DNA from: Phycisphaeraceae bacterium
GTDB lineage: Bacteria; Planctomycetota; Phycisphaerae; Phycisphaerales; Zrk34
Reading direction: 5' to 3'
Length of the DNA stretch: 43,863 bases
Assembly: GCA_028281485.1 (NCBI GenBank)
Contig: JANQJT010000342.1
Span: 1 to 43,863 of the forward strand
The position numbers and the translations under genes were made by a program. Numbering within the stretch: the first letter of the stretch is position 1; the number at the start of each line of letters is the position of its first letter. The notes beneath the pieces were generated by a model that worked only from the letters and a program-made list of their open reading frames with translations, did no database searches and was not told the DNA's origin. This document shows positions 7,225 to 43,691 of this stretch, piece by piece.

Positions 7225-7302
7225 TCCTTCAAATCGAACCCGCCCGGGGCGTCAGTCGGCGTACAATACCCAAGCCGCCGGGTTATTTGTGAAGGGAACG
7301 TG

Positions 7303-20069: not shown

Positions 20070-22160
20070 ATGAGTCAGGATCAACACACGTTTCAAAGGG
20101 CGGTCAGCGCCTCGCTATTGGGGCTGGCGATCCAGCTGGCCGTCAGCGGGATGCTGCTGCTGTTGGGGCTTCGGCTGGACAGCGCGCTGGTCACGATCGC
20201 CATGTTCCACGCGATCGGCGGCACGCTGCTCTGGGTCGCACTGGCCGTGGTGTACCAGCAGCACAAGCTCGAGCGGATCGAAGCCCTCGAGGCCGACGAG
20301 CTGGCCAAACGCCACGGCACCGACAGCTCGATTTTCTCAACCAGCGCCGAGGACCTCTCGGTCGCACGGCGCAGGCTCGGACGCCTGCAGAAGTGGGCCC
20401 TTCCCGTTGTGAGCTTCGTCACGGCGGGCTTCCTCGTCGGCATCGGCATCTGGCAGTTCGTCGCGCGATTCGACCTGCTGTCGGCCAAGCCCATGATGAG
20501 CGACCAGCTCGATCACGACCCCAAGCTCGACAGCATCGCCGGCGCCGACGCGTTCGGCAACGAAGGCGTGCTGTTGGCGCTGTTCGGCGGCGTGGCGTTC
20601 GTCATGTTCATCGTCAGCCGCTACGTCGCGGGCATGGCGAAGGTCAAAGAGTGGCAGATGCTGCGCGGCGGGGCGGGTTACCTCATGGGCGTCTGCCTCG
20701 TGTGTGCGATGCTCGCGCTGGGCTACGGCCTGCTGCTGCTGCCGTCCCCGGTCTCCATCGTGCTGACCTACATGGTCGCGATCGTGCCGGCGTTCATGGC
20801 GCTGATCGGCTTGGAGATGTTGCTGAACCTGGTGCTGGACGTGTACCGGCCGCGCAAGGTCGGCGAGCTGCCCCGGCCCGCGTTCGACAGCCGCCTGCTC
20901 AGTTTCCTGACCAGCCCCGAGTCGATCGCCCGATCGATCAACGACGCGATCAATTACCAGTTCGGTTTCGAGATCACCCACAGCTGGTTCTGGCAGCTGT
21001 TCACACGGGCGCTGCCCGCGCTGGTGCTGTTCAGCGGCGCGGTGCTGATGAGCATGTCCAGCCTGGTGTTCGTCGACGACGGTGACCAGGCCGTGATTAC
21101 GAGCTTCGGTCAACTCGACCAGCGCGTGCTCGAGCCCGGTGTTCACGTCAAGGCGCCGTGGCCGTTTGCCTCCGCCCAGAGCTACACGGTGGGGCGGGTC
21201 CAAAGCGTCTCCATCGGGTCCGACATCGTGATGATACCCGGCGAGGCCATCCTCTGGGACAACAAACACTCCGAGACCGAGCCGATCCACCTGATCGTTG
21301 CGCCGCTGGAAACAACGGTCGGCGAGCAGGACCCCGCAGATGAGAGCGATGGCAACGGGACAACGCGAGCCGTCACGCCCTCGGTCGCGCTGATCGATAT
21401 CGAGGTCAATCTGCACTACCAGGTCAGCGACCTGATCCAGTACCTGACTCACAACGACGACCCGGTCCGCCGTCTCGAGGCGCTCGGCAACGCGGAACTG
21501 TCGCGCTACCTGCTGAGCCAAACCATCGATGAGTGGCTCAGCACCTCGCGTCGTGAGACCGGCCAGGAGCTGCTGCGTCGCATCCAGGACGCGTGCGAGA
21601 AAGAAAAGCTCGGCGTCGAGGTGATCCACGTCTCGGCGGCGTCGATTCATCCACCGCGTGACGTGGCGTCGGCGTTCCACGAGGTGATCAAGGCCGAGCA
21701 TCAGCGCCAGATCCTCGTCGACGAGGCGCGGGCCACGGAGATCGCCACGCTCGTTGGCGCAGCCGGCTCGGTCGAAGAAGCCGAGGCGATCTACACCATG
21801 ATCGAATCCGCACGCTCGCTCAGCGGCGAGCGGGCCGCGGCCATGGCCGTTCAGATCGAGCGTTCGCTGACCCGCGCCGGTGGCGAGGCGGCGGTCGTAC
21901 TCGCCGAAGCCCACGGCGACCGCTGGCAACACGAAAACACGGAACTCGCCGCGGCCATGCGCTTCCCTCAAGAGCTCGCAGCCTACCGCGCCGAGCCCGG
22001 TGTCTACCGCCTGCGCGAGTTCCTCAAGGTCCTCCTCGAAGAATCACGCAAAGCCAAGGTCTACCTGATCCTCGCTGACCCCGAACGGTTCACCGTGCGA
22101 TTCAAGCTCGACGAACCCGCCTCCGCGCTGCCCGGCCTCGATCCCACAGCCACGAACTAA
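20070..22160 (+). CDS. polytopic membrane domain (about 7 TM, about 330 aa) fused to an SPFH/Band-7 (HflK-like) domain
   Basis: The first ~330 residues contain about 7 hydrophobic spans. Then LVFVDDGDQAVITSFGQLDQRVLEPGVHVKAPWPF (SPFH start), LGVEVIHVSAASIHPPRDVASAFHEVIKAEHQR and a coiled-coil tail, as in HflK/HflC. Confidence 0.75.
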   Translation: MSQDQHTFQRAVSASLLGLAIQLAVSGMLLLLGLRLDSALVTIAMFHAIGGTLLWVALAVVYQQHKLERIEALEADELAKRHGTDSSIFSTSAEDLSVARRRLGRLQKWALPVVSFVTAGFLVGIGIWQFVARFDLLSAKPMMSDQLDHDPKLDSIAGADAFGNEGVLLALFGGVAFVMFIVSRYVAGMAKVKEWQMLRGGAGYLMGVCLVCAMLALGYGLLLLPSPVSIVLTYMVAIVPAFMALIGLEMLLNLVLDVYRPRKVGELPRPAFDSRLLSFLTSPESIARSINDAINYQFGFEITHSWFWQLFTRALPALVLFSGAVLMSMSSLVFVDDGDQAVITSFGQLDQRVLEPGVHVKAPWPFASAQSYTVGRVQSVSIGSDIVMIPGEAILWDNKHSETEPIHLIVAPLETTVGEQDPADESDGNGTTRAVTPSVALIDIEVNLHYQVSDLIQYLTHNDDPVRRLEALGNAELSRYLLSQTIDEWLSTSRRETGQELLRRIQDACEKEKLGVEVIHVSAASIHPPRDVASAFHEVIKAEHQRQILVDEARATEIATLVGAAGSVEEAEAIYTMIESARSLSGERAAAMAVQIERSLTRAGGEAAVVLAEAHGDRWQHENTELAAAMRFPQELAAYRAEPGVYRLREFLKVLLEESRKAKVYLILADPERFTVRFKLDEPASALPGLDPTATN

Positions 22161-22198
22161 ACCAACCGAAAGAAACGATCAATCAAGGATATGCGGCA

Positions 22199-23155
22199 AT
22201 GAAAAAACTCTCTTCCATCCTGCTCGGCCTACTGCTCCTGCTGTTCTTCCTGGGCTACATGGTCACGTTCAGCGTGGGCCACAACCAGATCGCGGTGAAG
22301 TCCACCTTCGGCGTTGTTGGTGAGGACTCGGTCTACCACGGACGCGACGGCACGGGACGCGGCGTGCTCGGCAACCTCCACTTCAAGTGGTTCAACCCGA
22401 TCCAGAGCATCGAAACCTATTCCGCCCTCGTGCAACAGCTCGACATCGAGCCGACCCAGATCAAGCTGGACGACAACAACGTCGCCGTGGTGCAGCTGTT
22501 CGTCACGTGGCAGATCACCGACGCCAAGCTGTTTTACACCAAGCTGCGCACCGAAGACGAGGCGCGCCAGCGCCTCAAGGAACTGCTCCGCGACGCCACC
22601 AATCAGATCGCCAGCTACCGCTTCGAAGACCTGACCAACATCGACCCGGCCAAGCTGAAGATCACCGAGGCGCAGCAGAAGATCGCACAGACCCTGCAGG
22701 CCACCGCGGACGCCAGCGAGTACGGCATCACGATCCGCTCGGTCGGCATCGAGCGTTTGCTGCTGCCCTCGGAGGTGGCCAGCAAGGTGTTCGATCAGAT
22801 GAAGCAGACGCGCGAGACGCTGGCGTCGAAGGAGACCGAGGCGGGCAAGGCCGAGGCCACACAGATCCTCAGCCGCGCCGACTCGATCGCCACGCAGATC
22901 CTGAGCTTCGCCAACACGCGCGCCGAGGCCATCCGCAGCGAGGGCCGCATCGCCGTCGGCGAGAAGATCCGTGAGTTCCGCGACGATCCGGAGTTCGCCG
23001 AGTTCCTCCTGCGGCTGCAGGCCGTGCGACAGATGCTGGCCAACAACCCCACGATCATCGCCGACCCGCGCATGATCCCGTTCGACGTGTTTCCCCAGAT
23101 GAAAGAGCTGGAAGGGCGCTCCGGTATCAGCGCCTCCGATGACAACCTCGAGTAA
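22199..23155 (+). CDS. SPFH/Band-7 protein, HflC-like
   Basis: N-terminal anchor LSSILLGLLLLLFFLGYMV. Then VQLFVTWQITDAKLFY, YGITIRSVGIERLLLPSEVASKVFDQMKQTRE and an Ala/Glu-rich coiled coil. Confidence 0.8.
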   Translation: MKKLSSILLGLLLLLFFLGYMVTFSVGHNQIAVKSTFGVVGEDSVYHGRDGTGRGVLGNLHFKWFNPIQSIETYSALVQQLDIEPTQIKLDDNNVAVVQLFVTWQITDAKLFYTKLRTEDEARQRLKELLRDATNQIASYRFEDLTNIDPAKLKITEAQQKIAQTLQATADASEYGITIRSVGIERLLLPSEVASKVFDQMKQTRETLASKETEAGKAEATQILSRADSIATQILSFANTRAEAIRSEGRIAVGEKIREFRDDPEFAEFLLRLQAVRQMLANNPTIIADPRMIPFDVFPQMKELEGRSGISASDDNLE

Positions 23156-23163
23156 CGCCCACG

Positions 23164-24525
23164 ATGCAAGACCAAAACCACGAATATCACGACCCCGATC
23201 TCGACCTCGGTGATCACAGAGACCCGTTCGACGTTCAACCGACCAGGGAACTGAACATCGACGAGATGGACCCGGCCAACCGCTCGTTGGCCGAGGCGCT
23301 GCGCATCAGCTTCGGCTTCCTCAAGTGGGCCGTGGCGCTGTTGCTGATCGTGTTCATCGGCTACGGCTGCTACAACGAGATTCAGGAGGGCCAGATCGGC
23401 ATCCGCCTGCGCTTCGGTGCCGCGGTGGGCAAGCCCATTCAGGGCCCCGACGGCGATCCCAGCTACACCGTCACCGTCCTGAACCCCGGCGTGCACTTCT
23501 CCTGGCCGGAGCCGATCGACCGCATCATCGTCGTACCGACGCGCGAGCAGACGGTGACGATCGACAGCGCATTCTTCTTCCTGCTTCAGGAACGGGAATC
23601 CCACAAGCCGCTGACCGAGCGCACCTTGTTACCGGGCGGCCTCTTGCCCGGTCGCGACGGCTACCTGCTCACCGCCGACCGCAACATCGTCCACGGACAG
23701 TGGGCCGTCACCTTCCGTATCGACCCGGCCGACGCCGAGTTGTTCGCTCTCAACCTCGGCAGCGAAGACCTGACCGAGTCGCTCCAGGCCGCCCACGACA
23801 TGGTCAGCCGCGTCGCCCAGTGTGCCATCCTCCAGGTCGTCGCCACCATCACCGCCGACGACTTCATGGAGAAACAGACCGTCCCGGCCCGCTCGATCGA
23901 GATCGCCCAGCAGATGCTCGACGACATCGGCTGCGGCATCACGATCACCAACATCTCGCACGCCGAGGCACACGTCCCGCCGAGCGTGCGCGACAGCTTC
24001 AACCGCGTGACCCAGGCCAACGCCGAACGCAAACGACTCCGCGACGAGGCGATCAGCAAGGAAAACGCCAAGCTGCAGAACGTCGCGGGCGCGGGGTACC
24101 CCGTCTTGCTGGAAGCGATGCGCAACTACCAGGACGCCCGCATCCTCGGTGAGTCCGCCCGCATCGAGTCCACGCATCAACAGATCGATGCGCTGCTGAC
24201 CGACAACCAGTCCATGTCCGACAACGCCATCGGCGGCCGCGTCGCGGAGGTGATCAGCGCCGCCATCGCCGACCGCACCGGCATGGTCCAGCGCATCGAA
24301 TCCGATGTGAACAACTTCCGCGGCCACTATTCCGCCTTCGGCGACGACCCCGTCCTGCGCCGCATCAAGATGCAGCGCCTCTGGTACGACACGCTCGACG
24401 ACATCTTCGCCGAGAAACACGAGCTGTTCCGACTGCCGACCAATGCGCCTCACCTGATCATCGAGATCGGACGCAACCCCGAGATCAAGCAGCGCATCGT
24501 ACAAGACGACGAATCGGAGGAGTAA
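23164..24525 (+). CDS. SPFH/Band-7 protein, HflK-like
   Basis: Cytoplasmic N-terminus, anchor WAVALLLIVFIGYGCY, then IQEGQIGIRLRFGAAVG...LNPGVHFSWPEPIDR, LLTADRNIVHGQWAVTFRI and GITITNISHAEAHVPPSVRDSFNRVTQANAERKR. Confidence 0.8.
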   Translation: MQDQNHEYHDPDLDLGDHRDPFDVQPTRELNIDEMDPANRSLAEALRISFGFLKWAVALLLIVFIGYGCYNEIQEGQIGIRLRFGAAVGKPIQGPDGDPSYTVTVLNPGVHFSWPEPIDRIIVVPTREQTVTIDSAFFFLLQERESHKPLTERTLLPGGLLPGRDGYLLTADRNIVHGQWAVTFRIDPADAELFALNLGSEDLTESLQAAHDMVSRVAQCAILQVVATITADDFMEKQTVPARSIEIAQQMLDDIGCGITITNISHAEAHVPPSVRDSFNRVTQANAERKRLRDEAISKENAKLQNVAGAGYPVLLEAMRNYQDARILGESARIESTHQQIDALLTDNQSMSDNAIGGRVAEVISAAIADRTGMVQRIESDVNNFRGHYSAFGDDPVLRRIKMQRLWYDTLDDIFAEKHELFRLPTNAPHLIIEIGRNPEIKQRIVQDDESEE

Positions 24526-24527
24526 GC

Positions 24528-25715
24528 ATGGTCAGCCAGCAACCGGTGATCCAGACGTTCGGCCTGACCAAGGTCTTCAAGGACTTCTGGATGCGCCCGC
24601 GCATCCGGGCCGTCGATCATCTCGACCTCACCGTCGAGCCGCATCAGGTGTTCGGCCTGCTCGGGCCCAACGGCTCGGGCAAGAGCACCACGATCAAGAT
24701 CCTGCTCGGCCTGCTGTTCCCCACGCGCGGCAAGGCCGCCGTATTCGGTCGTCTGCCCAGCGAGGTCGTCACCAAACAGCGCATCGGCTACCTCCCCGAA
24801 GAGTCCTACCTCTACCGCTACCTCAACGCGCGCGAGACGCTCGACTACTACGGCCGCATCTTCCACATCGACCGACACACGCGCGTCAAACGCATCGACA
24901 TGCTCCTGGAGATGGTCGGTCTCGACGCCGTGCAACGACGCCCCGTCGGTGAGTATTCCAAGGGCATGCAGCGCCGCATCGGTCTGGCCCAGGCGCTGAT
25001 CAACGACCCCGAGCTGCTCATCCTCGACGAACCGACCACCGGCCTCGATCCCATCGGCACACGACAGATCAAGGACCTCATCCTCCACCTCAAGGAGCGC
25101 GGCAAGACGGTGCTTCTGTCCAGTCACCTGCTGGCCGATGTCGAGGACGTGTGTGACCGCGTCACCATTCTCTACGGCGGCAAGAAGCGGGCCGAGGGAA
25201 CGGTCGACGAGTTGTTGGAAGTGGAAGACTCACGCGTGATCGAAACCGATGCGCTCAAGCAAGAAACGATCGACAAGATCGAACGGCTCATCCAGGAAGA
25301 AGAGGGCGGCGCGATCCGTCGCGTCGAGCGTCCGCGTCAGAAACTCGAGGCGTTGTTTCTCGATATCGTGCACGCGGCTCAGGACGAGGGCGCCGCAACC
25401 AGCGGCGCGGTGGCCGGCGGAGCCGTTGCCGAGTTCCTCGCACGCGACGCACACATGCCCGAACAGGTCGACGGCGACGCGCTCATCGACCGGCTCACGC
25501 GCGTCGAACCGGAAGCCCCGGCGCTATCGCCCCCTGTCCAGTCGGCCGAGCCGATCAAGCCGACCGGGCCCGATACCGACGTGCTCGAAGGACTGACCCG
25601 AAGCGAACCTGTCGATTCCGCGCCCAAGCCCGAGCAGAAAGAAGAACCGCAGCCCAAGCGCGACATGGATCGTGGTGTGATCGATGACCTGATGGGTGGA
25701 GGCGGCGCGTCGTGA
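24528..25715 (+). CDS. ABC transporter ATP-binding protein (paralogue of 338-1318) with a P/E-rich C-terminal tail
   Basis: GPNGSGKSTT, YSKGMQRRIGLAQA, LLILDEPTTGLDP and SSHLL. It ends ...GGGGAS with a GTGA overlap into the permease, mirroring ...ENGGAS/ATGA at 1315. Confidence 0.9.
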   Translation: MVSQQPVIQTFGLTKVFKDFWMRPRIRAVDHLDLTVEPHQVFGLLGPNGSGKSTTIKILLGLLFPTRGKAAVFGRLPSEVVTKQRIGYLPEESYLYRYLNARETLDYYGRIFHIDRHTRVKRIDMLLEMVGLDAVQRRPVGEYSKGMQRRIGLAQALINDPELLILDEPTTGLDPIGTRQIKDLILHLKERGKTVLLSSHLLADVEDVCDRVTILYGGKKRAEGTVDELLEVEDSRVIETDALKQETIDKIERLIQEEEGGAIRRVERPRQKLEALFLDIVHAAQDEGAATSGAVAGGAVAEFLARDAHMPEQVDGDALIDRLTRVEPEAPALSPPVQSAEPIKPTGPDTDVLEGLTRSEPVDSAPKPEQKEEPQPKRDMDRGVIDDLMGGGGAS

Positions 25716-27514
25716 GCAAGCGAGGCTCCCTAACCTGGGAAAAGCGACCCGGCCTGCACGCGGCGGTCATCACGACCACCTTCACGGTCGTTGCGTACTT
25801 TTTGATCAGCCGACTCGAGACCATGGGCGACGGCGCCGGTCGCGCGGTTCTCGGCGCGATGGCGCTTGTCCTATTCGCAATGGGCGTGTGGATGCTGCGG
25901 CGATGCAACCGATCGGATTGGGGCTTGCTTCAGACGATCGGACTGTTTTTGTCTGCCTTTATGGTCCTGCTCGGCGTGGATTGTTTCCTGGGCGCTGCTT
26001 TCGACACGATGCTGATGAAGACACGCTGGGGCGCGGTGATCGGTCTCAGCCTGGTCTTGTCCGTCGGGTTTCTGATCGGTTACGGCTTGTTGCAAGTCAC
26101 GCTGTCCTTGCCGTGGCGACCATTGGGCGTGGCACGCGCGATCATCGCCGAAGCGATGGCCTACCGCGTCGTCGTAGGGGTGGTTGGGGCGCTGTTTCTC
26201 GGAGTCGTGGCGATCCCCCTCATGATCGGCCAGACCGAGTACAACACGCTCGAAGACATACCCACGCTCTACGATCGGATGCGAAAGTACCTGTCGTTTT
26301 CGTTCATGTTCGTCTCGGCGATGCTGTCGCTGATGACGGTGGTGCTCAGCTGCTGGTCGCTCAGCAACGAGGTCGACCAGCGATACGTCTACACGACGCT
26401 GACCAAGCCGATATCGCGGGGCGGCTACCTGCTGGGTAAGTGGCTGGGTGTGATGCTGCTCAACGGCCTGCTCGTGCTGGTCGTCGGCATCGCGATGTAT
26501 GGCTTCACCGTCTTCTATCTCGCCAAGATGGACCCGATCCACGCGCTAGACGAGAACGCGGTCAGCAAACAACTGCTGACCGCACGCATCGCCTCCACCG
26601 CCCAGCCCCCCGAGGAATTAGAGAAGTTGGCTGATGATGAACTCGAACGCATCCGCGTGGAGTTCGGTGATCGCTACATCGATGAACGCGGCGGCGACGC
26701 GGTTTTCCGTGAGGAAATCCTTGGGCGCCTGCTCGGCGAGTGGCGCAGCGTCGCGCCCTACGGCCGGGAGAACTATCGTCGCGTCTACAAGTTTACCGGG
26801 CTCGACACGGAAAACCGCAGCGACGAGTTCAACGCTCAGATCCAGTACACGCTACGCGCAGGCAGCTCCGTGCCCAAAGGCCAGGCGCGCGTCGGTTGGA
26901 CGGTCAACGGCTCGCCCATCACAGAGGTCGACGGCATCGAAGTCCCGCTGCGCATCCGACAGACCCTGCCGTTTCAGTCCAGCCGCATCAACGACGACGG
27001 CACGGTACTGCTCGAGCTGTTCAACCTGACCCCGGGTTCGTCGCTATACTTCAGCGGATTCGACAACCTGCAGGTCATGCACGAGGCCGACGGCTTTTCA
27101 GGAAACTTCGCACGCGCGATGATGATCGTCTGGATCAAGCTCATGTTCTTTGCCGCGCTGGGCCTGACCATGTCGACGTTTCTTAATTTCTACGTGTCGA
27201 TCCTCGGCTCCCTGCTGGTGCTCATCGCCGCGTCGAGCGGCAGCTACATCCTCGAGGCGGCCAGCCACTACGGCATCGGGCCCGATGCGCTGTTGATCGA
27301 GCAAGCGTTGCACTACATCGCCGTGACCTTTACATGGCCGCTGCAGCAGTACAGCAGCTTCGAACCGGGCAAGCACATCGTCGACGGACTGTACATCTCA
27401 TGGGGCCAATTGGGCCGATGCGTGCTGGTGCTGGGTGTGATCTGGACGGGCCTCGCGGGACTCATCGGATGGGGCATTTTCGCCCGGCGTGAGCTGGCGC
27501 GTGTGCAGGTGTAA
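25712..27514 (+). CDS. oversized ABC-2 family permease (extra N-terminal TMs plus an inserted soluble domain of about 215 aa)
   Basis: GTG start overlapping the upstream stop. IAEAMAYRVVVG and TLTKPISRGGYLLGKWLG are family motifs. A long non-hydrophobic segment (about aa 275-490) sits between TM blocks. Confidence 0.75.
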   Translation: MSKRGSLTWEKRPGLHAAVITTTFTVVAYFLISRLETMGDGAGRAVLGAMALVLFAMGVWMLRRCNRSDWGLLQTIGLFLSAFMVLLGVDCFLGAAFDTMLMKTRWGAVIGLSLVLSVGFLIGYGLLQVTLSLPWRPLGVARAIIAEAMAYRVVVGVVGALFLGVVAIPLMIGQTEYNTLEDIPTLYDRMRKYLSFSFMFVSAMLSLMTVVLSCWSLSNEVDQRYVYTTLTKPISRGGYLLGKWLGVMLLNGLLVLVVGIAMYGFTVFYLAKMDPIHALDENAVSKQLLTARIASTAQPPEELEKLADDELERIRVEFGDRYIDERGGDAVFREEILGRLLGEWRSVAPYGRENYRRVYKFTGLDTENRSDEFNAQIQYTLRAGSSVPKGQARVGWTVNGSPITEVDGIEVPLRIRQTLPFQSSRINDDGTVLLELFNLTPGSSLYFSGFDNLQVMHEADGFSGNFARAMMIVWIKLMFFAALGLTMSTFLNFYVSILGSLLVLIAASSGSYILEAASHYGIGPDALLIEQALHYIAVTFTWPLQQYSSFEPGKHIVDGLYISWGQLGRCVLVLGVIWTGLAGLIGWGIFARRELARVQV

Positions 27515-27523
27515 ACACAAGAC

Positions 27524-29815
27524 ATGAACAAGAACACGCTGATCATCCTGGTAGCCGTTTCGGTCGCGATTGCCGCGCTCGGCGCCAATTTCATGCTCAG
27601 CGGCGAGCTCAACCGACGCCGCGTCGAGGAACAACTCACCTACAACACCGATGTCCGCGAGAACCTCTCGCCACGCATGGCGCTGGCCTCGCTCATGTCC
27701 GGCTCGTTCCGTGGCGTTGCGATCAACTTCCTCTGGCAGCGCGCCAACAACCTCAAACAGGAGGGCAAGCACTTCGAGGCGGTCGACCTGGCCGAGTTCA
27801 TCTCCGAGCTGCAGCCCCGCTTCGACCAGGTCTGGGTCTTCCAGTCCTGGAACATGGCTTACAACATTTCCGTCGCCACCCACACCGACAGCGAGCGTTG
27901 GTTCTGGGTCAGTCGCGGCGTCGAACTGATCCGTGACAAGGGCCTGCGCTACAACCCCGACTCGGTCGCGCTCTATCGGCAGCTGTCGTGGACATTCTCC
28001 CACAAGATCGGCCAGGAGACCGACGAGGCCCACCGGCACTACAAGATCATGTTGGCGCTGGAGTGGAATCGTCTGCTCGGCACGCCGCCCCGACCGGGCC
28101 TGGTTGAGCAACGCGACCTCGACGGTCAGGTCGTGCTCGACGAAACGGGCCAACCGATCATGCGCCTGGCCGAAATCGAAGCCTTTGCGCCCATCGCCGC
28201 GATGGACCAGCGCTACTTCGCTATCGACGAGGTCTCCCGCGACTTGCGCAAGCAACTGGAACAGGTCATCCTCGAACGCGCACAGGACCTGGTCGTTCGC
28301 GGCATCGCCGAGTCCGAAGACCCCGTGATCGAGGCGCTGCGCAACCTGGCTTACTCGCGTCCGGGCGTGTTCGACCGCAAGGCGTCGCGCTACTGTGAGC
28401 AGTGGGCCCAGACCGAGCCTCAGATCGTCGCCAAGCTCCGCGCGATGATCGAGCAGAACAAGCCCAAGCTGGCTGCTGAGTGGATCGATACCGACCAGCG
28501 GTTTATCGAGGATTTCCCCGAGGCCACCGAGCGCGTCGGCGCGCTGCGGCTACGCGAGTTCAAATTGGACAGCGAACTGTTGCGCCGCCTCGGCATCGGT
28601 ACCGAGCGCGTCGCCGCCCAGAACCTCGGCTTCAACACCCCCAGCGAAGAAGGCGAGATCTCGCGTGACGCGTACATCGATGATTGGCTCCGTCAGACCG
28701 ACCCCGCTGTGGTGCGCGTACGCGATCAATTGATCCTGCCCTACCTGCGAGCCAAGACGCTGCGCGACACCTACAACATGTCGCCCACCTTTATGTTCGA
28801 GCTGATGGAGGGCGACTGGATGCGGGTGGCCGACAACCCGCTGACCGATCGCGACGAGTCGCAGCCCCTGCCCCTGCCGATCGATTGGCGTCACCCCGGC
28901 GCACACGGCATGTACTGGGCCTGGCGCGGTGTGTGGTTCAGCCGGCAACGCATGCACGACAGCGACGAGTTCTTCTTCGAGCTGCTCAACGTCTACCGCA
29001 TGGTCATCCACAACTCCCAGTGGCTGGCGCACAACGGCAGGCTGACATTCGACCCGATCACGCGTTACTACGATTGGCAGTCCGACCCCCGCATGATCGA
29101 GCTCTACCTCCGCCTGTACACCGGTCATACGGACTACATCGGCGGCATCTACAAGCAATCCGTCGCCGCCGAGAGCCTCGGCATCGGCCTGGAGCACTTC
29201 TACGAGTGGGCGATCGACAACTACTGGTGGTACGGCTACGAGCGCGAGGCGCGAGCGCTGTACCGCGAGTTGCAACGCGTCTTCCCCGATTCCGACATGC
29301 AACGCAAGCGGGCCGGCATGCCCATCGAACAGTTCGTGATGCGCGAGTTCTTCGACGACCTCGAAGAACCCGACCTCGCCCGTCAAAAGATCATCGGCAC
29401 GCTCTACCAATGGCTCCGCGCCGCCTACATCAACAACGAACCGGAACTCGCAGAACGGCGCCTGCGACAGGCGCAGCTCATGTACCGTCGCTACATGCAG
29501 CACTGGAGCGACACGCCGCGCATGATACTGCCGCCGTGGGACCAGCTGCTGACCGATGTGTGCTCCAGCTACATGCTCAGCCCGATCGGCCAGGGCGATG
29601 TTGCGGCGCAGATCCTATCCGGCCGCTACCAGTTCTGGCGGTACGCGCCGGTGGAGTTGAAACAGGCGATGTGGGACCGCATCCACGAGCCGCTGTACAC
29701 GATGATCCGCCGATCCGGAGCAGGCCTGAACGACCCGAGCGTGCTGTTCCCCGAGCCGCCCGGCATGGAGCAGTGGCGTGAGCAAAACCGTAACCGCGCC
29801 ACTCAGGGCAACTGA
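27524..29815 (+). CDS. hypothetical 763-aa protein, single N-terminal anchor, Trp/Tyr-rich helical body
   Basis: ATG lies 9 nt after the permease stop. Anchor LIILVAVSVAIAALGANFML. Blocks such as FLWQRANNLKQEG, VWVFQSWNMAYNISV and ERWFWVSRGVELIRDKG match no family I can name. Confidence 0.65.
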   Translation: MNKNTLIILVAVSVAIAALGANFMLSGELNRRRVEEQLTYNTDVRENLSPRMALASLMSGSFRGVAINFLWQRANNLKQEGKHFEAVDLAEFISELQPRFDQVWVFQSWNMAYNISVATHTDSERWFWVSRGVELIRDKGLRYNPDSVALYRQLSWTFSHKIGQETDEAHRHYKIMLALEWNRLLGTPPRPGLVEQRDLDGQVVLDETGQPIMRLAEIEAFAPIAAMDQRYFAIDEVSRDLRKQLEQVILERAQDLVVRGIAESEDPVIEALRNLAYSRPGVFDRKASRYCEQWAQTEPQIVAKLRAMIEQNKPKLAAEWIDTDQRFIEDFPEATERVGALRLREFKLDSELLRRLGIGTERVAAQNLGFNTPSEEGEISRDAYIDDWLRQTDPAVVRVRDQLILPYLRAKTLRDTYNMSPTFMFELMEGDWMRVADNPLTDRDESQPLPLPIDWRHPGAHGMYWAWRGVWFSRQRMHDSDEFFFELLNVYRMVIHNSQWLAHNGRLTFDPITRYYDWQSDPRMIELYLRLYTGHTDYIGGIYKQSVAAESLGIGLEHFYEWAIDNYWWYGYEREARALYRELQRVFPDSDMQRKRAGMPIEQFVMREFFDDLEEPDLARQKIIGTLYQWLRAAYINNEPELAERRLRQAQLMYRRYMQHWSDTPRMILPPWDQLLTDVCSSYMLSPIGQGDVAAQILSGRYQFWRYAPVELKQAMWDRIHEPLYTMIRRSGAGLNDPSVLFPEPPGMEQWREQNRNRATQGN

Positions 29816-29969: not shown

Positions 29970-30938
29970 ATGGCGCAGATCGATTCAACTCAGCCCCTCG
30001 GCCCGGCGCCCCCGGAACCGCCAGCCCCCACACCGCGCAATCGGTTCTCCAGCCTCTCCCTTCCCTGGATCGTCAGCATCGCCGTACACATCGCCATCGC
30101 GGTCATCGGCATGTTCGTTGTCTGGTCTTCGACCACACAGAAACCCGACAAGGTCATCGTGCCGTTGACACGTTTCACCGGCGACGTGGTCGCCGAGAAC
30201 CTAGCCGACCCACAGGACACCGAAATCGCTGTGATCCACGAACGGGTGCAAACAGCCGAACCGGTCGAGGTCGCGACAGCCGAGCCGCCGGACCTGCTCG
30301 CGATCGACAACGACGCGCCGCTGAGCGCGATCGATATCGAAGTCGCGCTTCCCCTGCCTCCGGGCACGACGACCGATCGCCCCGAGCTGTCGGTCGAGTT
30401 GTTTGGCGTCGGCGGCAACGCGCGCACCGTCGTCTTCGTGGTCGACGCGTCCGGCTCGCTGCTCGACGTGTTGCCGCAAGTCATCAACGAGCTGGCACGC
30501 TCGATCCGTCAGCTGTCGACCGAGCAACGTTTCACCGTGATCTTCTTCCAGGGCGGCCGGGTCATCCACGTGCCCGTGCCGCACGCGGGCCTGAAGCGCG
30601 CCACCGCTGACGCCAAGCGAGCCGTCATCCGATGGATCGCGCTGGACAGCGGCAACATCCGCGCCGCCGGCTCGACCAACCCGCTTATCGCGCTCGAGGC
30701 CGCGATCAAGCTCAAGCCGGAACTGATCTTTGTCATGTCCGACGACTTCCGCGGCGCGGGCGATACGCCCCAGACGCAGCGCGCGATGTTGCAACGCGTC
30801 GCCCGGGCCGTCGGCGACACCAACCTCGCAATCAACACCATCGAGTTCAACGACATCGACCGGTCCGGCGTCCTCCGTCGGATCGCCGAACGACACGGCG
30901 GAACCTACAAGCACGTGGGCGATCCGCTGCAGCGATAG
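29970..30938 (+). CDS. vWA (MIDAS) domain protein with a Pro-rich N-terminus and a TonB-like SxxxH transmembrane anchor
   Basis: PLGPAPPEPPAPTP, then the anchor LPWIVSIAVHIAIAVIGMFVV (S36-x3-H40). The MIDAS residues are complete: VVDASGS ... GSTN ... VMSDD. No TonB C-terminal domain recognisable. Confidence 0.75.
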   Translation: MAQIDSTQPLGPAPPEPPAPTPRNRFSSLSLPWIVSIAVHIAIAVIGMFVVWSSTTQKPDKVIVPLTRFTGDVVAENLADPQDTEIAVIHERVQTAEPVEVATAEPPDLLAIDNDAPLSAIDIEVALPLPPGTTTDRPELSVELFGVGGNARTVVFVVDASGSLLDVLPQVINELARSIRQLSTEQRFTVIFFQGGRVIHVPVPHAGLKRATADAKRAVIRWIALDSGNIRAAGSTNPLIALEAAIKLKPELIFVMSDDFRGAGDTPQTQRAMLQRVARAVGDTNLAINTIEFNDIDRSGVLRRIAERHGGTYKHVGDPLQR

Positions 30939-30972
30939 ACCGACACGCGCCTCGCGCGCGAAAGGAGACGAT

Positions 30973-31749
30973 ATGCGATCACGCAAGACCCGGTACGCGA
31001 CCCTCACCCTCTGCGTACTGACCGCCTGGACGGCACAGGCGCTGGCGCAGGGCGGAGCGGAACCGACCGACGCCGAACCGACCAGCTTCACCTCGATGTT
31101 CTTCTGGTCCGACTCACGCCTCGGCCTGGTGCTGATCTACCTGCTGCTGACGATGTCGGTCGCGACCGTCGGGCTGATCATCCACTACGTCCTGCAGAAC
31201 AGGCGTACCAACATCCTCTCGCCATCAGCCAAGCAGGACATCGGCTCCAGCCTCAACAGCGGGCTGTACGGCAAAGCCATCGAGATCGCCCAGCGCGACC
31301 CCAGCGTGTTCGGTCGTATCATCGGCACAGCGCTCGGTGAGTCGTCGCACGGCTACGGCGCCATGGAACGCGCGATCGAAGAATCCGGCGACGTCGCCAT
31401 CATCTCTCGCGTTCGCGCGTTGGATATCCTCAACGTCTTCGGCGCCGTCGGCCCCATGATCGGGCTCTTCGGCACCGTCTACGGCATGATCATCACCTTC
31501 CAGGCCATCGAACAGACCGGTGGCAGACCCGACGTCGGCCAACTCGCCGGCGGCATCTCCACCGCGCTGGTCACCACCTTCTGGGGCCTGCTCGTCGGCA
31601 TCCCCGCCACCGCCGCCGCCGCGCTCATCCGCAACCGAATCGAAGGTCTCGTCACCGAGGCCATGGCCGAGGCCGACGCCATGATCGGCCGCTTCCGTCC
31701 CGCCCCACAAACCGACGCCACACAGACCAGCACGGAACCCCGCGATTGA
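30973..31749 (+). CDS. exbB: MotA/TolQ/ExbB-family proton channel protein
   Basis: AAAGGAG RBS and a signal-like N-terminus. LNVFGAVGPMIGLFGTVYGMIITFQAI and GGISTALVTTFWGLLVGIPA are the family signature helices. Start set at ATG 30973, not 30730. Confidence 0.88.
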   Translation: MRSRKTRYATLTLCVLTAWTAQALAQGGAEPTDAEPTSFTSMFFWSDSRLGLVLIYLLLTMSVATVGLIIHYVLQNRRTNILSPSAKQDIGSSLNSGLYGKAIEIAQRDPSVFGRIIGTALGESSHGYGAMERAIEESGDVAIISRVRALDILNVFGAVGPMIGLFGTVYGMIITFQAIEQTGGRPDVGQLAGGISTALVTTFWGLLVGIPATAAAALIRNRIEGLVTEAMAEADAMIGRFRPAPQTDATQTSTEPRD

Positions 31750-32216
31750 TCTCCCGAAGACGCTACAGACCCGCGCGCGTGCAGACGAACATGACCTCCA
31801 TGCTCGACGTGGTCTTTCTATTGATCATCTTCTTCATCCTCGCCACCAACTTCGCTGCCAAGGACGTGCCCCGCATGGACACACCCGAACCCAACGTCAG
31901 CCTCGCCGAGCAGTGGGACAAGCCCAACGCGCGCGTGATTAATCTGTTGGCTGATCCGGCTGCGCCGGGTGAAGTCGGCGAGGTGCTCCTGCAGGGCGGT
32001 CGCGGCAGCTACCCGATGAGCGCCCAGGGCCTGGCCGACCTGACCGAGTCGCTGTATCAGATGCGACAGCGCATGCCCGCCTTGGAGATCGACGTCCGCG
32101 CCGATCGGTCGCTGCCTTACGACCGGGTCGAACCGGTGTTGGACGCGATCAAGGCCGCGGGTATCTTCCGGGTCAACCTCGTCGCTCAGCTCCAACGCGG
32201 GGGGGTGGCCCCTTGA
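31746..32216 (+). CDS. exbD: ExbD/TolR-family protein 1
   Basis: TNMTSMLDVVFLLIIFF (conserved TM Asp), then a periplasmic domain ending IFRVNLV. TTG start overlaps the exbB stop (TTGA). Confidence 0.85.
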   Translation: MISRRRYRPARVQTNMTSMLDVVFLLIIFFILATNFAAKDVPRMDTPEPNVSLAEQWDKPNARVINLLADPAAPGEVGEVLLQGGRGSYPMSAQGLADLTESLYQMRQRMPALEIDVRADRSLPYDRVEPVLDAIKAAGIFRVNLVAQLQRGGVAP

Positions 32217-32743
32217 GCACGACACCGATACACGCCGAACCCGATCGCGCAGATACAGGTCAGACCGTGCATCACCGACGCCACACCGCGCGCGATCGCG
32301 GCCTGCAACCGCTGAACCTCACCAGCATGCTCGACGTCTGCTTCCTCCTGCTCGTGTTCTTTGCGCTCACCGCGAGCTTCGCCATCGACGAGGGCGTGTT
32401 GCCGACGGAACTGCCGGACGAGGGGCGCGGCGTCGCGGTCGATGCGCCGCCGCCGGTCGAGCCGATCCGCATCGTGCTCACGCCGCAGAACACCGACGGC
32501 GTCCGGATCGAGGTGCAATCCGTCCACCAACCCGTCCCCGCCAACAGCGAGCGGCTCTACCTGATGCTCGACAGCTGGCGGTTCGATCAACAGACCGGTC
32601 AGGGCCTGTTCGACGCGAGCAATCCCGTTGTCATCCGCGTCAGCGGCGCGGTCCGATGGCAACACGTCGTCGATGTTTATAATGCGGTCCTGCGTGCGAA
32701 GTACACCAACGTCGGCATCGTCGGCAACGAGCGAGACGCGTGA
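32213..32743 (+). CDS. exbD: ExbD/TolR-family protein 2
   Basis: LNLTSMLDVCFLLLVFF with the TM Asp. TTG start overlaps the previous stop (TTGA). Confidence 0.85.
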   Translation: MSTTPIHAEPDRADTGQTVHHRRHTARDRGLQPLNLTSMLDVCFLLLVFFALTASFAIDEGVLPTELPDEGRGVAVDAPPPVEPIRIVLTPQNTDGVRIEVQSVHQPVPANSERLYLMLDSWRFDQQTGQGLFDASNPVVIRVSGAVRWQHVVDVYNAVLRAKYTNVGIVGNERDA

Positions 32744-35463
32744 TCCGGATCCCTCTCACCATGTCGTGTCTGGTCTGCTTGTGTGTTGTTGTGGTCGCGA
32801 ACGACGCGCTCGGGCAGCACGACGCCCCGACGCTCGCTCGTTACGCGATCGACGGCCACCACAACCGTGTCGCCCAGATCATCAACGCCTGCCCGGCCGA
32901 TCCCGACAAGGCCTTCAAGCTGCGCGACGCCCTCATCGATGGCTACCTCACCGAGCTGCGCGGCGATCGCGAGCGTTGGGAGAGAGGGGCCGGCTGGGTC
33001 ATCGCGCTGCACAACAAGACCGTCACGGCGCCGCAGAACCTGGTCGATTGGCGTCGGTCGATGTGGCAGACCGACCTGGCGCAGCAGCTCCTGTTCCGCG
33101 CCATGCCGCAGCGCCACATGGCCGGCGACTTCATCCTGTTGGGCTGTCCCTCACCGGGCCAGCGCTCCGCAGCGGACCTGCTGACCACGCGGCTCTGGGG
33201 ATACCTTGACGAGGCCGAGGCCGAGCACCAGCGCGTGCGCAACACACTGAGCAAGCGACCGGACTACCAGACGGAATATGTCGAGACGGGCCGCGTGAAT
33301 CGCATGCGCGATCACCTGACCGTGCACGTGCCTTACTACCGCGCGTGGACGGCGCTGCTGCTCAGCACGCAGGCCGACGATGGGCCCTACTTCAAGAAAT
33401 ACCGCGATGCCGAGACCCGTCGCGCAGCCCTGCTCCGGCGCGCCGCGATGGACGCCGCCGCCGTCGCCAAGAACCAAAAGGGCTTCGACACCGAGGCCCG
33501 CGCGCGCCTGCACCTGCTCACCGCCATGATCGCCGTCGCACGCGGCGATCAGGACACCGCACGCCGCCAGCTCGCCGCGGCAGACAATGCCGAGGGCGTC
33601 TCGGATTACACACGCATGCAGGTCAGGCTGGCCCGGGCGCAATCCCTGACCGCCTCCGGCCGATACACCGCCGCCGCCGCCGTGCTCGACAGCCTCGACC
33701 GACAGCTCTTTGTCCGGTCCAGCCCCTTCCACATGGTGCTGGTTGCCGATCAGCGCTTCGCCATGCTGTGTCGCCGGGCCTTGGCCCAGCAAGACCCCGC
33801 GCAGCAGGACTCGCTGCTCGCCGAAGCGTTCGATGTGTACGAGAAATTGTTGGTACGCTCAGCGATGAAGCCGTGGCGCGAGCCCTTTGAACAGTTCGTC
33901 CGTCAGCGTTACACCTCGCAAATCCCCAAGGGCGTGACACACGATCAGCTCCCGCCGATCGTGCGGCTAGCGCTGATCAAAGACGCGTACCGCCGGGCCA
34001 TGGCGCTGGACGAGACCGGCGACGCATCCGAATCTAAACCGCTGTACGAGTCGGCCGTCGAGATGTCGCGCGACCTGTTGGCCGAGACGCGCTTGTCCGA
34101 AGAGGACCACGCCGAGGCAGGTTACATGCTCGGCCTGTCTCTCCTGCAACTCGGGCGCCTCGATGAAGCCGGCCCGACGCTGCTCGATGTCGCCGAGCGC
34201 TATCCCAAGCTCCAACGCGGCGAGCAGGCGATGGTCGTCGTCTACCTCCGCATCGCTCGACCCGCCTTCCGAGACAACCCCGACGATCAGGCAACCAGTC
34301 GTTTCTACGAGCAGACCCTGCGGCTGATGCTCACCAGCTACCCGCTCATCGAACAATCCTCCGCCGCACGATACGAACTGCCCGTTTACCTCCACCATCA
34401 GCGCCGCTACGCCGAGGCATACAAGGCCTACGGCCGTGTTCCCGACGAGCACCCCGCTTTTGCTGAATCGATCTACGAGAAGATGAAGTGTGCCCACGCG
34501 ATCTGGGTCGATGCGCGCAGCGTGAAAACGGCGCGAGACACGATCACCGCCAGCGAGGAGTACCTCACCGAGGCGCAGCGCGTGATGGCCACGGGTCGCG
34601 CCAAGCCGCAGCGCGTCGAGCGGCTCACGCGCTATTCGGTCGGCGCCCTGCTCACGCGCGCGGGCGTGGTGCTGCAACAGTTCGACGCGATCGATCAGGC
34701 CGAGCGCGCCGTCGATCAGGTCGCCCAGGTGGTAGGAGACAACAGCGAGTGGCAGAGCCGCATCCTCTCATTGCGTATCACGATCGCCGAGAAGCGGGGT
34801 GACTACGCTGCCGCCGCGAAGGCCGTTGACGCTCTACACCGCCTGGACCCCGAGCTCGGTGGCGGCATGGCGGCGTCGCTGCTGCGAACGCTGGACGACC
34901 ACGCCAAACGCCGCGCCGAGAACCGAGCTGGCCTCCAAGAACTCAGCAGCCTCGCCGACGCGGCCTGCGCACTGGCCGACCGTGCCGCGCTGCCCTGGGC
35001 GAACAAACAAGCATCACTGCCCACGACACAAAAGATGTTGCTCGCGCAGGTTCCCGCAGACTGTCTCTACCGCGCCGCACGATACGATCGGGCGTTGCAA
35101 CGCTACGAGGCGATCGAGAAACAATTCCCCACGATCGCCGGCCGAAGCCTGTCGATCATCGAATCCGCCGCCGAGTGTCGCTACCACCTCAAGCAATACG
35201 AACCCGCCCGGGCCGGCTACGAGAAGATCATCCGCAACGCCCAGACACAGCAACGCTACGACCGACACTACTGGCTCGCCCAACTCCGCTGCTACCAGAT
35301 GTGGGACGCACGCCTGGCCGGCTCGACCGACCCACGACTCGGACGATCCATCGATGTTCTCCTGGAGATCAGCGGACAGCGCGGCCTGACCGATGATTTC
35401 CGCTCACGCCTCGTCGTGTTGCGTGACAAACACCTGTCCGCATCAAGCCGGGCCGTGCCGTAA
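32740..35463 (+). CDS. secreted 907-aa TPR/helical-repeat protein
   Basis: GTG start overlaps the exbD2 stop (GTGA). Signal-like MSCLVCLCVVVVANDALG. The body is Ala/Leu/Arg-rich and helical with TPR-like units, e.g. AEAGYMLGLSLLQLGRLDEAGPTLLDVAERYP. Confidence 0.75.
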   Translation: MIRIPLTMSCLVCLCVVVVANDALGQHDAPTLARYAIDGHHNRVAQIINACPADPDKAFKLRDALIDGYLTELRGDRERWERGAGWVIALHNKTVTAPQNLVDWRRSMWQTDLAQQLLFRAMPQRHMAGDFILLGCPSPGQRSAADLLTTRLWGYLDEAEAEHQRVRNTLSKRPDYQTEYVETGRVNRMRDHLTVHVPYYRAWTALLLSTQADDGPYFKKYRDAETRRAALLRRAAMDAAAVAKNQKGFDTEARARLHLLTAMIAVARGDQDTARRQLAAADNAEGVSDYTRMQVRLARAQSLTASGRYTAAAAVLDSLDRQLFVRSSPFHMVLVADQRFAMLCRRALAQQDPAQQDSLLAEAFDVYEKLLVRSAMKPWREPFEQFVRQRYTSQIPKGVTHDQLPPIVRLALIKDAYRRAMALDETGDASESKPLYESAVEMSRDLLAETRLSEEDHAEAGYMLGLSLLQLGRLDEAGPTLLDVAERYPKLQRGEQAMVVVYLRIARPAFRDNPDDQATSRFYEQTLRLMLTSYPLIEQSSAARYELPVYLHHQRRYAEAYKAYGRVPDEHPAFAESIYEKMKCAHAIWVDARSVKTARDTITASEEYLTEAQRVMATGRAKPQRVERLTRYSVGALLTRAGVVLQQFDAIDQAERAVDQVAQVVGDNSEWQSRILSLRITIAEKRGDYAAAAKAVDALHRLDPELGGGMAASLLRTLDDHAKRRAENRAGLQELSSLADAACALADRAALPWANKQASLPTTQKMLLAQVPADCLYRAARYDRALQRYEAIEKQFPTIAGRSLSIIESAAECRYHLKQYEPARAGYEKIIRNAQTQQRYDRHYWLAQLRCYQMWDARLAGSTDPRLGRSIDVLLEISGQRGLTDDFRSRLVVLRDKHLSASSRAVP

Positions 35464-42074: not shown

Positions 42075-43691
42075 TTACTCGACGGTCTCGGTTTCAACCG
42101 GCGGGGCTTCCGTGAGCACGCGGAGCTGGTCGACCTCGGTCGTGGACATGAACAGCGTGATCGTGCGGCGATCCTCGCTGAGCGTAATCTCGTCGCTGTC
42201 GGTGTGGCCGTTGCCGGTGTCCAAGCCGCGGTAGTGCTGACCGGTCGGCATGATCACGTCCGGGTTGCCGAACAGCGCATCGCTGGTGTCCAGCGCGTTG
42301 GTGCCGACGATCAAGCCCACGATCGGCCGGGGGAACCGCAGCGTGCAATGGGTCGTCTGCGGGTTGTTGCCCTCGTAGGGCTCGCCGTTGATGTCGGCGA
42401 TGTCCAGGTGCACTAGGTAGCTGGTGACGTCCTGGCCGCTCTCGACGCGGCCGGCGCGGCTGTACATGTCACGCCCGCGGTACCAGCCGGGCTCCGAGAT
42501 CAGTCGCGTCAGCGTCTGATCCACGGTGACGCGCTGCTGTTCCATGAAGATGATCGGCTGATTGGTCAGCAGGCCGTCCTCGTAGCGGTGCACGCTGGCC
42601 GGTGCGTGGTTCTGGTAAATCGCGTGGCCCCGGGTGACGGTGACGTGATCCACCGCGTCACGCATGTCACGGACGTACAGGTGGAACGTCGGCACGGGCT
42701 CGATCACCGTCGACAGCACCGTCTGCGCGCTGACGCGTGACTGCTGCTCAGCGACCAGCGTCGTCGAACGACCCAGCGAACCGGTCTCCGTCATCTCATA
42801 GAGCTCGATCTTGCCGTCGAACACCGTCGCGCGCGTCGCGCCGTTCTCCGCGACCTCCACGCCGAACTCCGTGCCCAGGTCGACCACCTTCGCGGTCGGC
42901 GTGTTCACCGTGAAGCGATACGCCTCGGTCGGCACGTACGCCACGAGCTTGCCGCGATGCAGCATCAGCGTGTTGTTGTCCTCAAGCTCGGCCTGGAACG
43001 GCGCCTCGAAGATCACCTTCGCGCCGCGATCCATCACCACTTCCACAAATCCGCTCTCGGCCTGCAGTTCGCCCCTGCGCAGCGTTCCGTTCTCGACGAC
43101 CGGCTCGTTCTCTTCGACCCACTGCACGTGCTGCGTATCCAACAGCTTGGCCACGATCGGCGGCTGCGGCTTGAGCATGTCCTTCAGCTCGGGGGCCAGC
43201 ACGATGCCCAGCGTGATCGCCATCAGCACCATCGCTGCCAACGCCAAGTGACGCAGACCGAAGCCCTTGCGGGTCTGGTAGACCTGCACACCGGCAAAGC
43301 CGAACAGCAGCTCGCTGTCCTCCGCTTCTTCTTCCTCCGGCTGCGGCGCCATGTGGCCCGGCGACATCAGGCGACAGGTCTCCACCGGGTCGGCCAGCTC
43401 GTAACCGACGGGGATGTCGGCCTCGGCGTCCGGCTCACTCGGGCCCAGCAGCGACTCCAGCAGCGCGTCCTCCGCGATCGCCCCGCTGCGCTCGATGCGC
43501 TGCACGCACTGCACAAGGCTCGTCAACGCCACGAAGGCGTCGCGCTTGTGCGCGTCGTGCATCAGCTCCAGGCTGAACGCGTCAAACTCATCGATCTCCA
43601 TCTCGCCGTCGAGATAGCGCACCACGCGCTCGACGAACGCGTTGTCCTCCATCTCACGCAGGCGTTGATAGGGATCGGACTTGGGGGACAT
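42075..43691 (-). CDS. FecR-family anti-sigma factor with a large extracytoplasmic C-terminal domain
   Basis: Cytoplasmic N-terminal region, TM LALAAMVLMAITLGIVLAP, and a FecR-like block (VVMDRGAKVIFEAPFQAELED...FTVNTPTAKVVDLGTEFGVEV). The ATG immediately follows the stop of the upstream ECF sigma gene (TAAATG). Confidence 0.75.
   Translation of the reverse strand: MSPKSDPYQRLREMEDNAFVERVVRYLDGEMEIDEFDAFSLELMHDAHKRDAFVALTSLVQCVQRIERSGAIAEDALLESLLGPSEPDAEADIPVGYELADPVETCRLMSPGHMAPQPEEEEAEDSELLFGFAGVQVYQTRKGFGLRHLALAAMVLMAITLGIVLAPELKDMLKPQPPIVAKLLDTQHVQWVEENEPVVENGTLRRGELQAESGFVEVVMDRGAKVIFEAPFQAELEDNNTLMLHRGKLVAYVPTEAYRFTVNTPTAKVVDLGTEFGVEVAENGATRATVFDGKIELYEMTETGSLGRSTTLVAEQQSRVSAQTVLSTVIEPVPTFHLYVRDMRDAVDHVTVTRGHAIYQNHAPASVHRYEDGLLTNQPIIFMEQQRVTVDQTLTRLISEPGWYRGRDMYSRAGRVESGQDVTSYLVHLDIADINGEPYEGNNPQTTHCTLRFPRPIVGLIVGTNALDTSDALFGNPDVIMPTGQHYRGLDTGNGHTDSDEITLSEDRRTITLFMSTTEVDQLRVLTEAPPVETETVE

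Follow-up and report, generated by a model that had tools for sequence, protein, structure and literature searches.

A five-gene locus at positions 29,970 to 35,463 of a 43,863-nucleotide stretch of DNA from a Phycisphaeraceae bacterium (contig JANQJT010000342.1 of assembly GCA_028281485.1; hereafter, the window) probably encodes a Planctomycetota force transducer system, in which an ExbB5/ExbD1-ExbD2 motor drives the von Willebrand factor A (vWA) head of a membrane-anchored protein. The central idea is already in print, as such vWA force transducers were described in silico in June 2025, Planctomycetes included, in a study that started from Tichowtungia aerotolerans (Williams-Jones et al. 2025, Mol Biol Evol 42:msaf138; PMC12204202). 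The class is thus known by computation. Judged by sequence comparison, the window locus is a member of this published kind, because its family profile matches Tichowtungia transducer 2 (hhalign probability 97.3%, E = 2.7e-11, 116 columns; sequence transcribed from the supplement of PMC12204202), and it forms a subfamily of that kind rather than a new one. By BLASTP, the match to the Tichowtungia seed has E = 2e-4, with 23% identity over 90 residues. A preliminary description of this DNA, made from its letters alone, had regarded the arrangement as uncharacterised. This holds experimentally, and a targeted literature search found no later experimental work on vWA force transducers, but the novelty so implied is largely gone owing to the 2025 description.

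The five open reading frames (ORFs) all lie on the forward strand, with coordinates as first reported, and the Pfam assignments agree with the proposed order of vWA, ExbB, two ExbD paralogues and a tetratricopeptide repeat (TPR) protein:

29970..30938, + strand: vWA-type force transducer, 322 aa (Pfam VWA_3, AlphaFold2 (AF2) model, Foldseek)
30973..31749, + strand: ExbB/TolQ-like stator subunit, 258 aa, with a signal-like N-terminal extension (MotA_ExbB, E = 8.7e-25)
31746..32216, + strand: ExbD paralogue 1 (ExbD1), at most 156 aa, counted from the longest-ORF start (Pfam ExbD, E = 4.4e-19)
32213..32743, + strand: ExbD paralogue 2 (ExbD2), at most 176 aa, counted from the longest-ORF start, with a longer N-terminal tail (Pfam ExbD, E = 1.6e-15)
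32740..35463, + strand: large secreted TPR-like helical-repeat protein, 900-907 aa (TPR_6, E = 8e-8, and weaker TPR families)

The VWA_3 match of the first product (E = 6.8e-8) exceeds the Pfam gathering score. The operon was originally said to be without a TonB, and this is borne out: neither TonB_C (including TIGR01352) nor TolA is found at E <= 0.1 in the five products with Pfam and NCBIfam, or at E <= 0.001 in the other large ORFs of the window with Pfam. The TolB and Pal families likewise have no match in the operon or the window (Pfam throughout, with NCBIfam for the operon products).

The vWA protein begins with a proline-rich cytoplasmic N-terminus, followed by one transmembrane (TM) helix, a linker and a C-terminal vWA domain. 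Three of its segments carry the argument:

30060..30134, + strand: TM anchor, residues 31-55, LPWIVSIAVHIAIAVIGMFVVWSST, with S36 at 30075-30077 and H40 at 30087-30089
30141..30203, + strand: post-TM linker motif, residues 58-78, KPDKVIVPLTRFTGDVVAENL, a candidate motor box defined from the family alignment
30426..30917, + strand: vWA domain with a metal ion-dependent adhesion site (MIDAS) comprising D159-A-S161-G-S163, T236 and D258, supported by column counts, AF2 and Foldseek

The single helix with its Ser-x3-His pair is as first noted, the segment LPWIVSIAVHIAIAV holding both S36 and H40, and the pair proves to be conserved among orthologues. P32, S36 and H40 were each at least 90% conserved in a first alignment of relatives, and P32, W33, S36 and H40 are nearly invariant across relatives. 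S-x3-H lies inside a hydrophobic helix in 100 of 116 vWA copies, and the histidine alone is present in about 110. Most of the exceptions keep the histidine and replace the serine by Ala, Gly, Thr or Val; the others comprise two copies of one locus with Tyr for His, one copy cut by a contig end and one anchorless fusion. Going by these alignments, the motif recurs far beyond chance. The anchor consensus of the family is LPW-x-I-S-x-L-x-H-x-G-L-V-L-L-A-x-F-V-V-W-S, and hhalign sets its Ser and His in register with S16/H20 of E. coli TonB (FPWPTLLSVCIH) and S18/H22 of TolA (IIISAVLH). On present alignments, the resemblance to TonB and TolA is best described as a shared motif, with homology unproven.

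An AF2 model built from a 21-sequence alignment predicts the helix at residues 31-55 with a pLDDT (predicted local distance difference test) of ~90, disorder from residue 56 to 150 (a linker of ~95 residues) and an alpha/beta domain at residues 153-316 with a pLDDT mostly above 90. The best Foldseek matches of this domain are ITIH4, ITIH1, Cav alpha2delta and CMG2 (the anthrax toxin receptor), and the sequence profile of the family also matches ITIH4. As modelled, the vWA protein has the three-part topology of TonB and TolA with a different head. The MIDAS vWA domain of the preliminary description is found in the sequence (motifs DASGS, GST and SDD) and backed by both AF2 and Foldseek. Its columns are well kept in 98 relatives (D159 in 91, S161 in 91, S163 in 98, S/T236 in 77 and D258 in 84), a pattern that indicates residues under selection.

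The motor box is a segment of TonB or TolA that contacts ExbD or TolR (PMC12204202). In the vWA family, a motif consisting of an acidic patch and then (I/V)(I/V)P-x-(A/V)-R-L-S-x-T-P-G-A-P-L lies about 5-25 residues beyond the helix, inside an otherwise variable disordered region, and its prolines are frequent (P65 in 78 and P73 in 88 of 98 sequences). By analogy, residues 58-78 are the natural candidate for a motor box, with the periplasmic domains of ExbD as its presumed binding partners.

The motor itself is divergent. ExbB scores under all the NCBIfam equivalog cut-offs for TolQ, ExbB and MotA, and the TolQ, ExbB, TolR and ExbD equivalog scores of the operon products are all far under their cut-offs, for which reason the motor is placed as a divergent member of the superfamily rather than a canonical Ton or Tol motor. 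The residues expected of a proton motor are nevertheless in place. T168 and T202 of ExbB, which correspond to E. coli T148 and T181, are present in 73 and 72 of 74 family members, and the TM aspartate is kept in 69 of 69 orthologues of ExbD1 (D21) and 69 of 70 orthologues of ExbD2 (D41). ExbD1 aligns to the ExbD of PDB entry 7ajq, and ExbD1 and ExbD2 form separate orthologous groups, with ExbD2 always following ExbD1. In domains, TM aspartates and pore threonines, the three products thus have the sequence hallmarks of an ExbB/ExbD-type proton motor, whose 5:2 stoichiometry we infer from solved homologues. At the counterpart of E. coli ExbB E176 and TolQ E173, T197 (31561-31563), 71 of 74 ExbB members have Thr. 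Searches with defence-system models returned a generic weak ZorA match to ExbB (E = 8e-6) and nothing for the other four proteins. A Zorya anti-phage system (ZorA/ZorB with ZorC/D or ZorE) was rejected, as the ZorA match is generic and there are no effector matches.

Synteny was assessed by running hidden Markov models made from annotated seeds against all stop-to-stop ORFs of 85 loci, with counts limited to the 66 loci that have at least 4.5 kb of downstream sequence. Of the ExbB seeds, the window sequence entered in the wrong frame (30974 instead of 30973) and the five others in the right one; the ExbB residue counts above come from the correct frame. A fixed order of vWA (one to three copies), in some loci a small TPR gene, then ExbB, ExbD1, ExbD2 and large TPR is kept in 60 of them, or 61 if L007, where one ORF is masked, is included. 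The vWA gene is thus co-conserved with exbB and exbD, as had been anticipated. A third ExbD occurs in 4 of the 60 complete loci, and the large TPR gene lies downstream in 58. The grouping of up to three vWA copies with one motor suggests that several transducers share it. In every annotated locus examined (five related loci), the flanking genes differ; since the flanks are not conserved, the five-gene module is taken as the unit.

This family of transducers is large. A scan of one genome per species found relatives in at least 158 genomes, and Phycisphaerae and unclassified Planctomycetota account for almost all of the best 79 loci, with a single Singulisphaera besides. When the family profile was searched against 1.84 billion representative proteins, it matched 1,560 clusters (50% identity) at E <= 1e-30. 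A broader word-indexed search with a 51-sequence profile added no further named organisms.

One might suppose that a BatA-like anchored vWA protein merely happens to lie beside an Exb motor, with S-x3-H reflecting nothing but helix packing. Membrane-anchored bacterial vWA proteins are indeed common, a few vWA copies are orphans, and the anchor cannot be shown statistically to be homologous to TonB or TolA. BatA and BatB also resemble the window locus: these bacterial vWA proteins are N-terminally membrane-anchored, and their operon likewise encodes a TPR protein. Bat operons, however, pair vWA with a MoxR AAA+ ATPase and DUF58 and not with ExbB and ExbD, and neither AAA_3/MoxR nor DUF58 has a Pfam match among the neighbouring ORFs of the window. 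A Bat aerotolerance operon was rejected for want of these two partners. Coincidence is very improbable when set against a fixed-order co-occurrence with the motor of ~92%, maintained in divergent genomes (30-40% identity) whose flanks are unrelated, and against a histidine that is almost invariant in an otherwise variable TM segment.

The published transducers have a TM helix bearing an SHLS motif, then a disordered linker that contains a motor box, and end in a vWA domain; in the PVC group, the genes nearby are one like tolQ, two heterologous ones like tolR and one for a TPR protein, and the transducers are distributed over Proteobacteria, Planctomycetes, Verrucomicrobia, Bacteroidetes and Rhodothermaeota (PMC12204202). 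AlphaFold 3 models place the TM histidine of the transducer at the TonB/TolA site on the motor (PMC12204202). The Tichowtungia system shares with the window the Ser/His helix, a disordered linker with a short motif and the vWA head, as well as a tolQ/exbB-like gene, two tolR/exbD-like genes and TPR neighbours, and like the Phycisphaerae relatives it often has more than one transducer paralogue per locus. The two differ in size (322 aa in the window versus 474-476 aa with a large insertion in Tichowtungia) and in gene order, the window vWA gene lying upstream of the motor whereas the published ones lie downstream of the TPR and motor genes. They also differ at the MIDAS, where DASGS is intact in the window whereas the Tichowtungia transducers have DADKR (1) and DANKL (2), with the serines missing. 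Another published arrangement, TPH-vWA with TolQ only, likewise sets a membrane-tethered vWA protein beside a TolQ-like gene, but it has no exbD or tolR, and its vWA helix carries a proton-binding Asp that is predicted to lie inside the pentamer (PMC12204202). The window locus, by contrast, has two ExbD genes and a vWA helix with Ser/His and no Asp.

Compared with TonB and TolA themselves, the window protein has in common the N-terminal S-x3-H TM helix, the non-globular middle that spans the periplasm and a motor of the MotA/ExbB/TolQ family with ExbD/TolR partners, and the TPR gene at the operon end is reminiscent of CpoB in tol-pal and of the TPR genes found in certain tonB operons. It differs in its head, a Rossmann-like vWA domain with a metal site in place of TonB_C or TolA_C, and in the operon around it, which has two distinct ExbD paralogues and no linked TolB, Pal or TonB-dependent transporter gene. 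The 'L...S' half of the TonB/TolA SHLS motif (E. coli sequences) is also not in register with the window family. The proposal of the preliminary description, that a vWA head in place of the TonB domain gives such a motor another output, is supported, and the same reading has been published (PMC12204202).

With the same anchor motif, motor type and three-part topology, the vWA protein could instead be a substitute for TonB that energises TonB-dependent-type transporters for nutrient import in lineages without TonB. ExbB-ExbD-ExbD-TonB-TPR operons occur in other phyla. Earlier surveys, as cited in PMC12204202, omit Planctomycetes from the TonB-bearing phyla. Such a role is quite unlikely, as no TonB-dependent transporter gene (Plug/TonB_dep_Rec) was found in the window, nor was one noted next to the module in five annotated loci, and a vWA/MIDAS head is incapable of the TonB-box beta-strand augmentation. 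An output in envelope maintenance or remodelling is more likely than one in nutrient import.

A homologue search with the large TPR protein (907 aa) recovered the window's own protein as the sole match, and a profile of the TPR locus translations gave weak generic TPR matches only against the PDB. AF2, run on the single sequence, predicts an all-helical protein of ~40 helices, with low confidence. A different division of labour would make this protein the real output and the vWA protein a brake, plug, chaperone or localisation factor. Other bacterial systems use vWA domains as partners for assembly or as chaperones, and one motor accompanies one to three vWA paralogues. Tight synteny, moreover, speaks for association and not for the direction of force flow. 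On the other side, a long disordered linker with a distal globular head is a hallmark of periplasm-spanning transducers (PMC10666116), and the TPR protein carries a signal peptide only, without a motor-binding anchor. A regulatory or assembly role for the vWA protein is accordingly considered unlikely.

The reading that we favour remains that of a motor-driven vWA transducer. From the observed gene content, domain architecture, synteny and conservation of anchor, MIDAS and motor residues, we infer how the helix may dock, what the motor box may contact, which partner may be engaged and what the physiological role may be. An ExbB pentamer around an ExbD1/ExbD2 heterodimer would form a 5:2 inner-membrane motor driven by the proton-motive force, which is proposed because both ExbDs keep the TM Asp and ExbB keeps the pore threonines. 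The vWA protein would take the role of TonB or TolA, its TM helix docking against the outer face of the ExbB ring by way of His40 and Ser36 and the motif at about residues 61-69 contacting the ExbD periplasmic domains. The disordered linker of ~95 residues could then span the periplasm, so that the vWA head may grip a partner via its MIDAS metal site and not by beta-strand addition as in TonB and TolA. Motor activity would pull on or reposition the gripped partner. The best candidate for this partner, or for a scaffold, is the co-conserved periplasmic TPR protein of ~900 aa; an unlinked outer-membrane protein is the alternative.

Several points weigh against this mechanism. No deletion phenotype is known for any vWA transducer (PMC12204202), and nothing in the conserved module codes for an outer-membrane component. 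The hhalign probability of the anchor against TonB and TolA is 4-11%, a likeness at the motif level only, and a profile of the N-terminal 60 residues run against the PDB retrieved neither a TonB nor a TolA chain. The AF2 monomer model has no beta-strand where the motor box is proposed. Because the Tichowtungia seed lacks the MIDAS serines, metal binding is not universal in the wider family. Finally, about five loci have orphan vWA copies with no adjacent motor.

These orphan anchor-plus-vWA genes, in loci L038, L045, L062, L067 and L068, lack a downstream ExbB or ExbD for 7-8 kb, and their neighbours (HupE/UreJ, ABC-3, a PDZ protease) share no common theme. Elsewhere, a second and more divergent vWA paralogue lies upstream of the main one (L002 8869-9876, L005 2492-3556; also in L024, L033, L035, L055, L069 and L072). 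The upstream paralogues usually keep the TM histidine, and their serine is often replaced by Ala, Gly or Val. An extra secreted protein of 350-400 aa lies between the vWA gene or genes and ExbB in 41 of the 60 complete loci and is absent from the window. In this small TPR-like protein, a short N-terminal domain precedes the TPR-like region (L002 11075-12133, L004 9038-10234, L005 5080-6174). In L053 (8923-10188), a small secreted TPR-like N-terminus is fused to a vWA C-terminus with no TM anchor, which hints at a physical link between the small TPR-like protein and the vWA component.

Other variants concern the motor genes and the annotation. In L054 (329-4500, minus strand), and also in L052, a second ExbB-ExbD-ExbD-TPR module runs on the opposite strand, ~3.5 kb upstream of the vWA module. 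Its TPR protein has 849 aa, classical TPRs and a YfiO-like match, and no TonB-like or vWA transducer gene adjoins it. P0182, a member of the family, carries the JGI label 'biopolymer transport protein ExbD', a slip that was probably carried over from its neighbour, and in the 719-aa relative P0197 the vWA region is fused to FHA-type domains (PF00498, PF16697).

Start codons bear on a further claim of the preliminary description, which read 4-nt overlaps at the last three gene junctions as evidence of translational coupling and fixed stoichiometry. The tetranucleotides TTGA at 31746, TTGA at 32213 and GTGA at 32740 are in the sequence and are the first possible starts of the longest ORFs, but other in-frame starts are available for ExbD1 (GTG 31779, ATG 31791), ExbD2 (GTG 32267) and the TPR gene (ATG 32761), and the spacing is not conserved in relatives, the called intergenic distances in five related loci ranging from -1 to 276 nt. 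The public gene call of the TPR product is 900 aa and therefore implies ATG 32761, the likely start. The ExbB start is ATG 30973, with GGAG 6 nt upstream. The operon genes are tightly packed, but in view of the alternative starts and the variable distances the 4-nt overlaps are neither proven nor conserved, and coupling with fixed stoichiometry, built on such unverified start codons, was an over-reading. Promoter and terminator scans gave counts not above the shuffled expectation.

Directly upstream of the module on the same strand, the block at 20070-29815 holds three consecutive SPFH/Band-7 genes (20070, 22199 and 23164), then genes for an ABC ATPase (24528) and an ABC-2-like permease (25712), and one for a 763-aa protein (27524) without a family match. 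These SPFH, ABC-transporter and 763-aa genes were rejected as parts of the system, as they are absent beside the module in the other loci examined. Further genes of the window that relate to the envelope or to regulation encode a 1240-aa protein with a weak, below-threshold DUF748 match (7300-11022), a 538-aa FecR-domain protein (42075-43691) and a sigma-70 family factor (4808-5749, minus strand).

For a long time, no periplasmic force transducers other than TonB and TolA were known for Exb/Tol-type motors. Beyond the 2025 description, what is new here is a clear Phycisphaerae-type subfamily in which the MIDAS site is conserved, together with a post-helix motif that is now defined and fixed ExbD1/ExbD2 orthologous groups. 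According to a statement in the supplement of PMC12204202, which cites Witwinowski et al., Planctomycetota are without Pal. It is conceivable, if unlikely, that in Phycisphaerae the MIDAS-intact transducers, the ExbD1/ExbD2 motor and the TPR protein form a third trans-envelope force system that replaces the missing Tol-Pal, tethering or constricting the outer membrane without Pal through an integrin-type metal-ion grip, with paralogues that address different targets on one motor. Complete genomes that carry the system include CP036425, CP066225, CP050848 and CP087563. The existence of culturable carriers (among them Poriferisphaera corsica KS4, with the homologue KS4_09340, and the strain genomes ZRK32 and ZRK34) makes the function open to direct test. 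A head domain of a third type, above all one whose metal adhesion site is intact, would make the combination of motor and anchor, able to carry different tools, a general power take-off.

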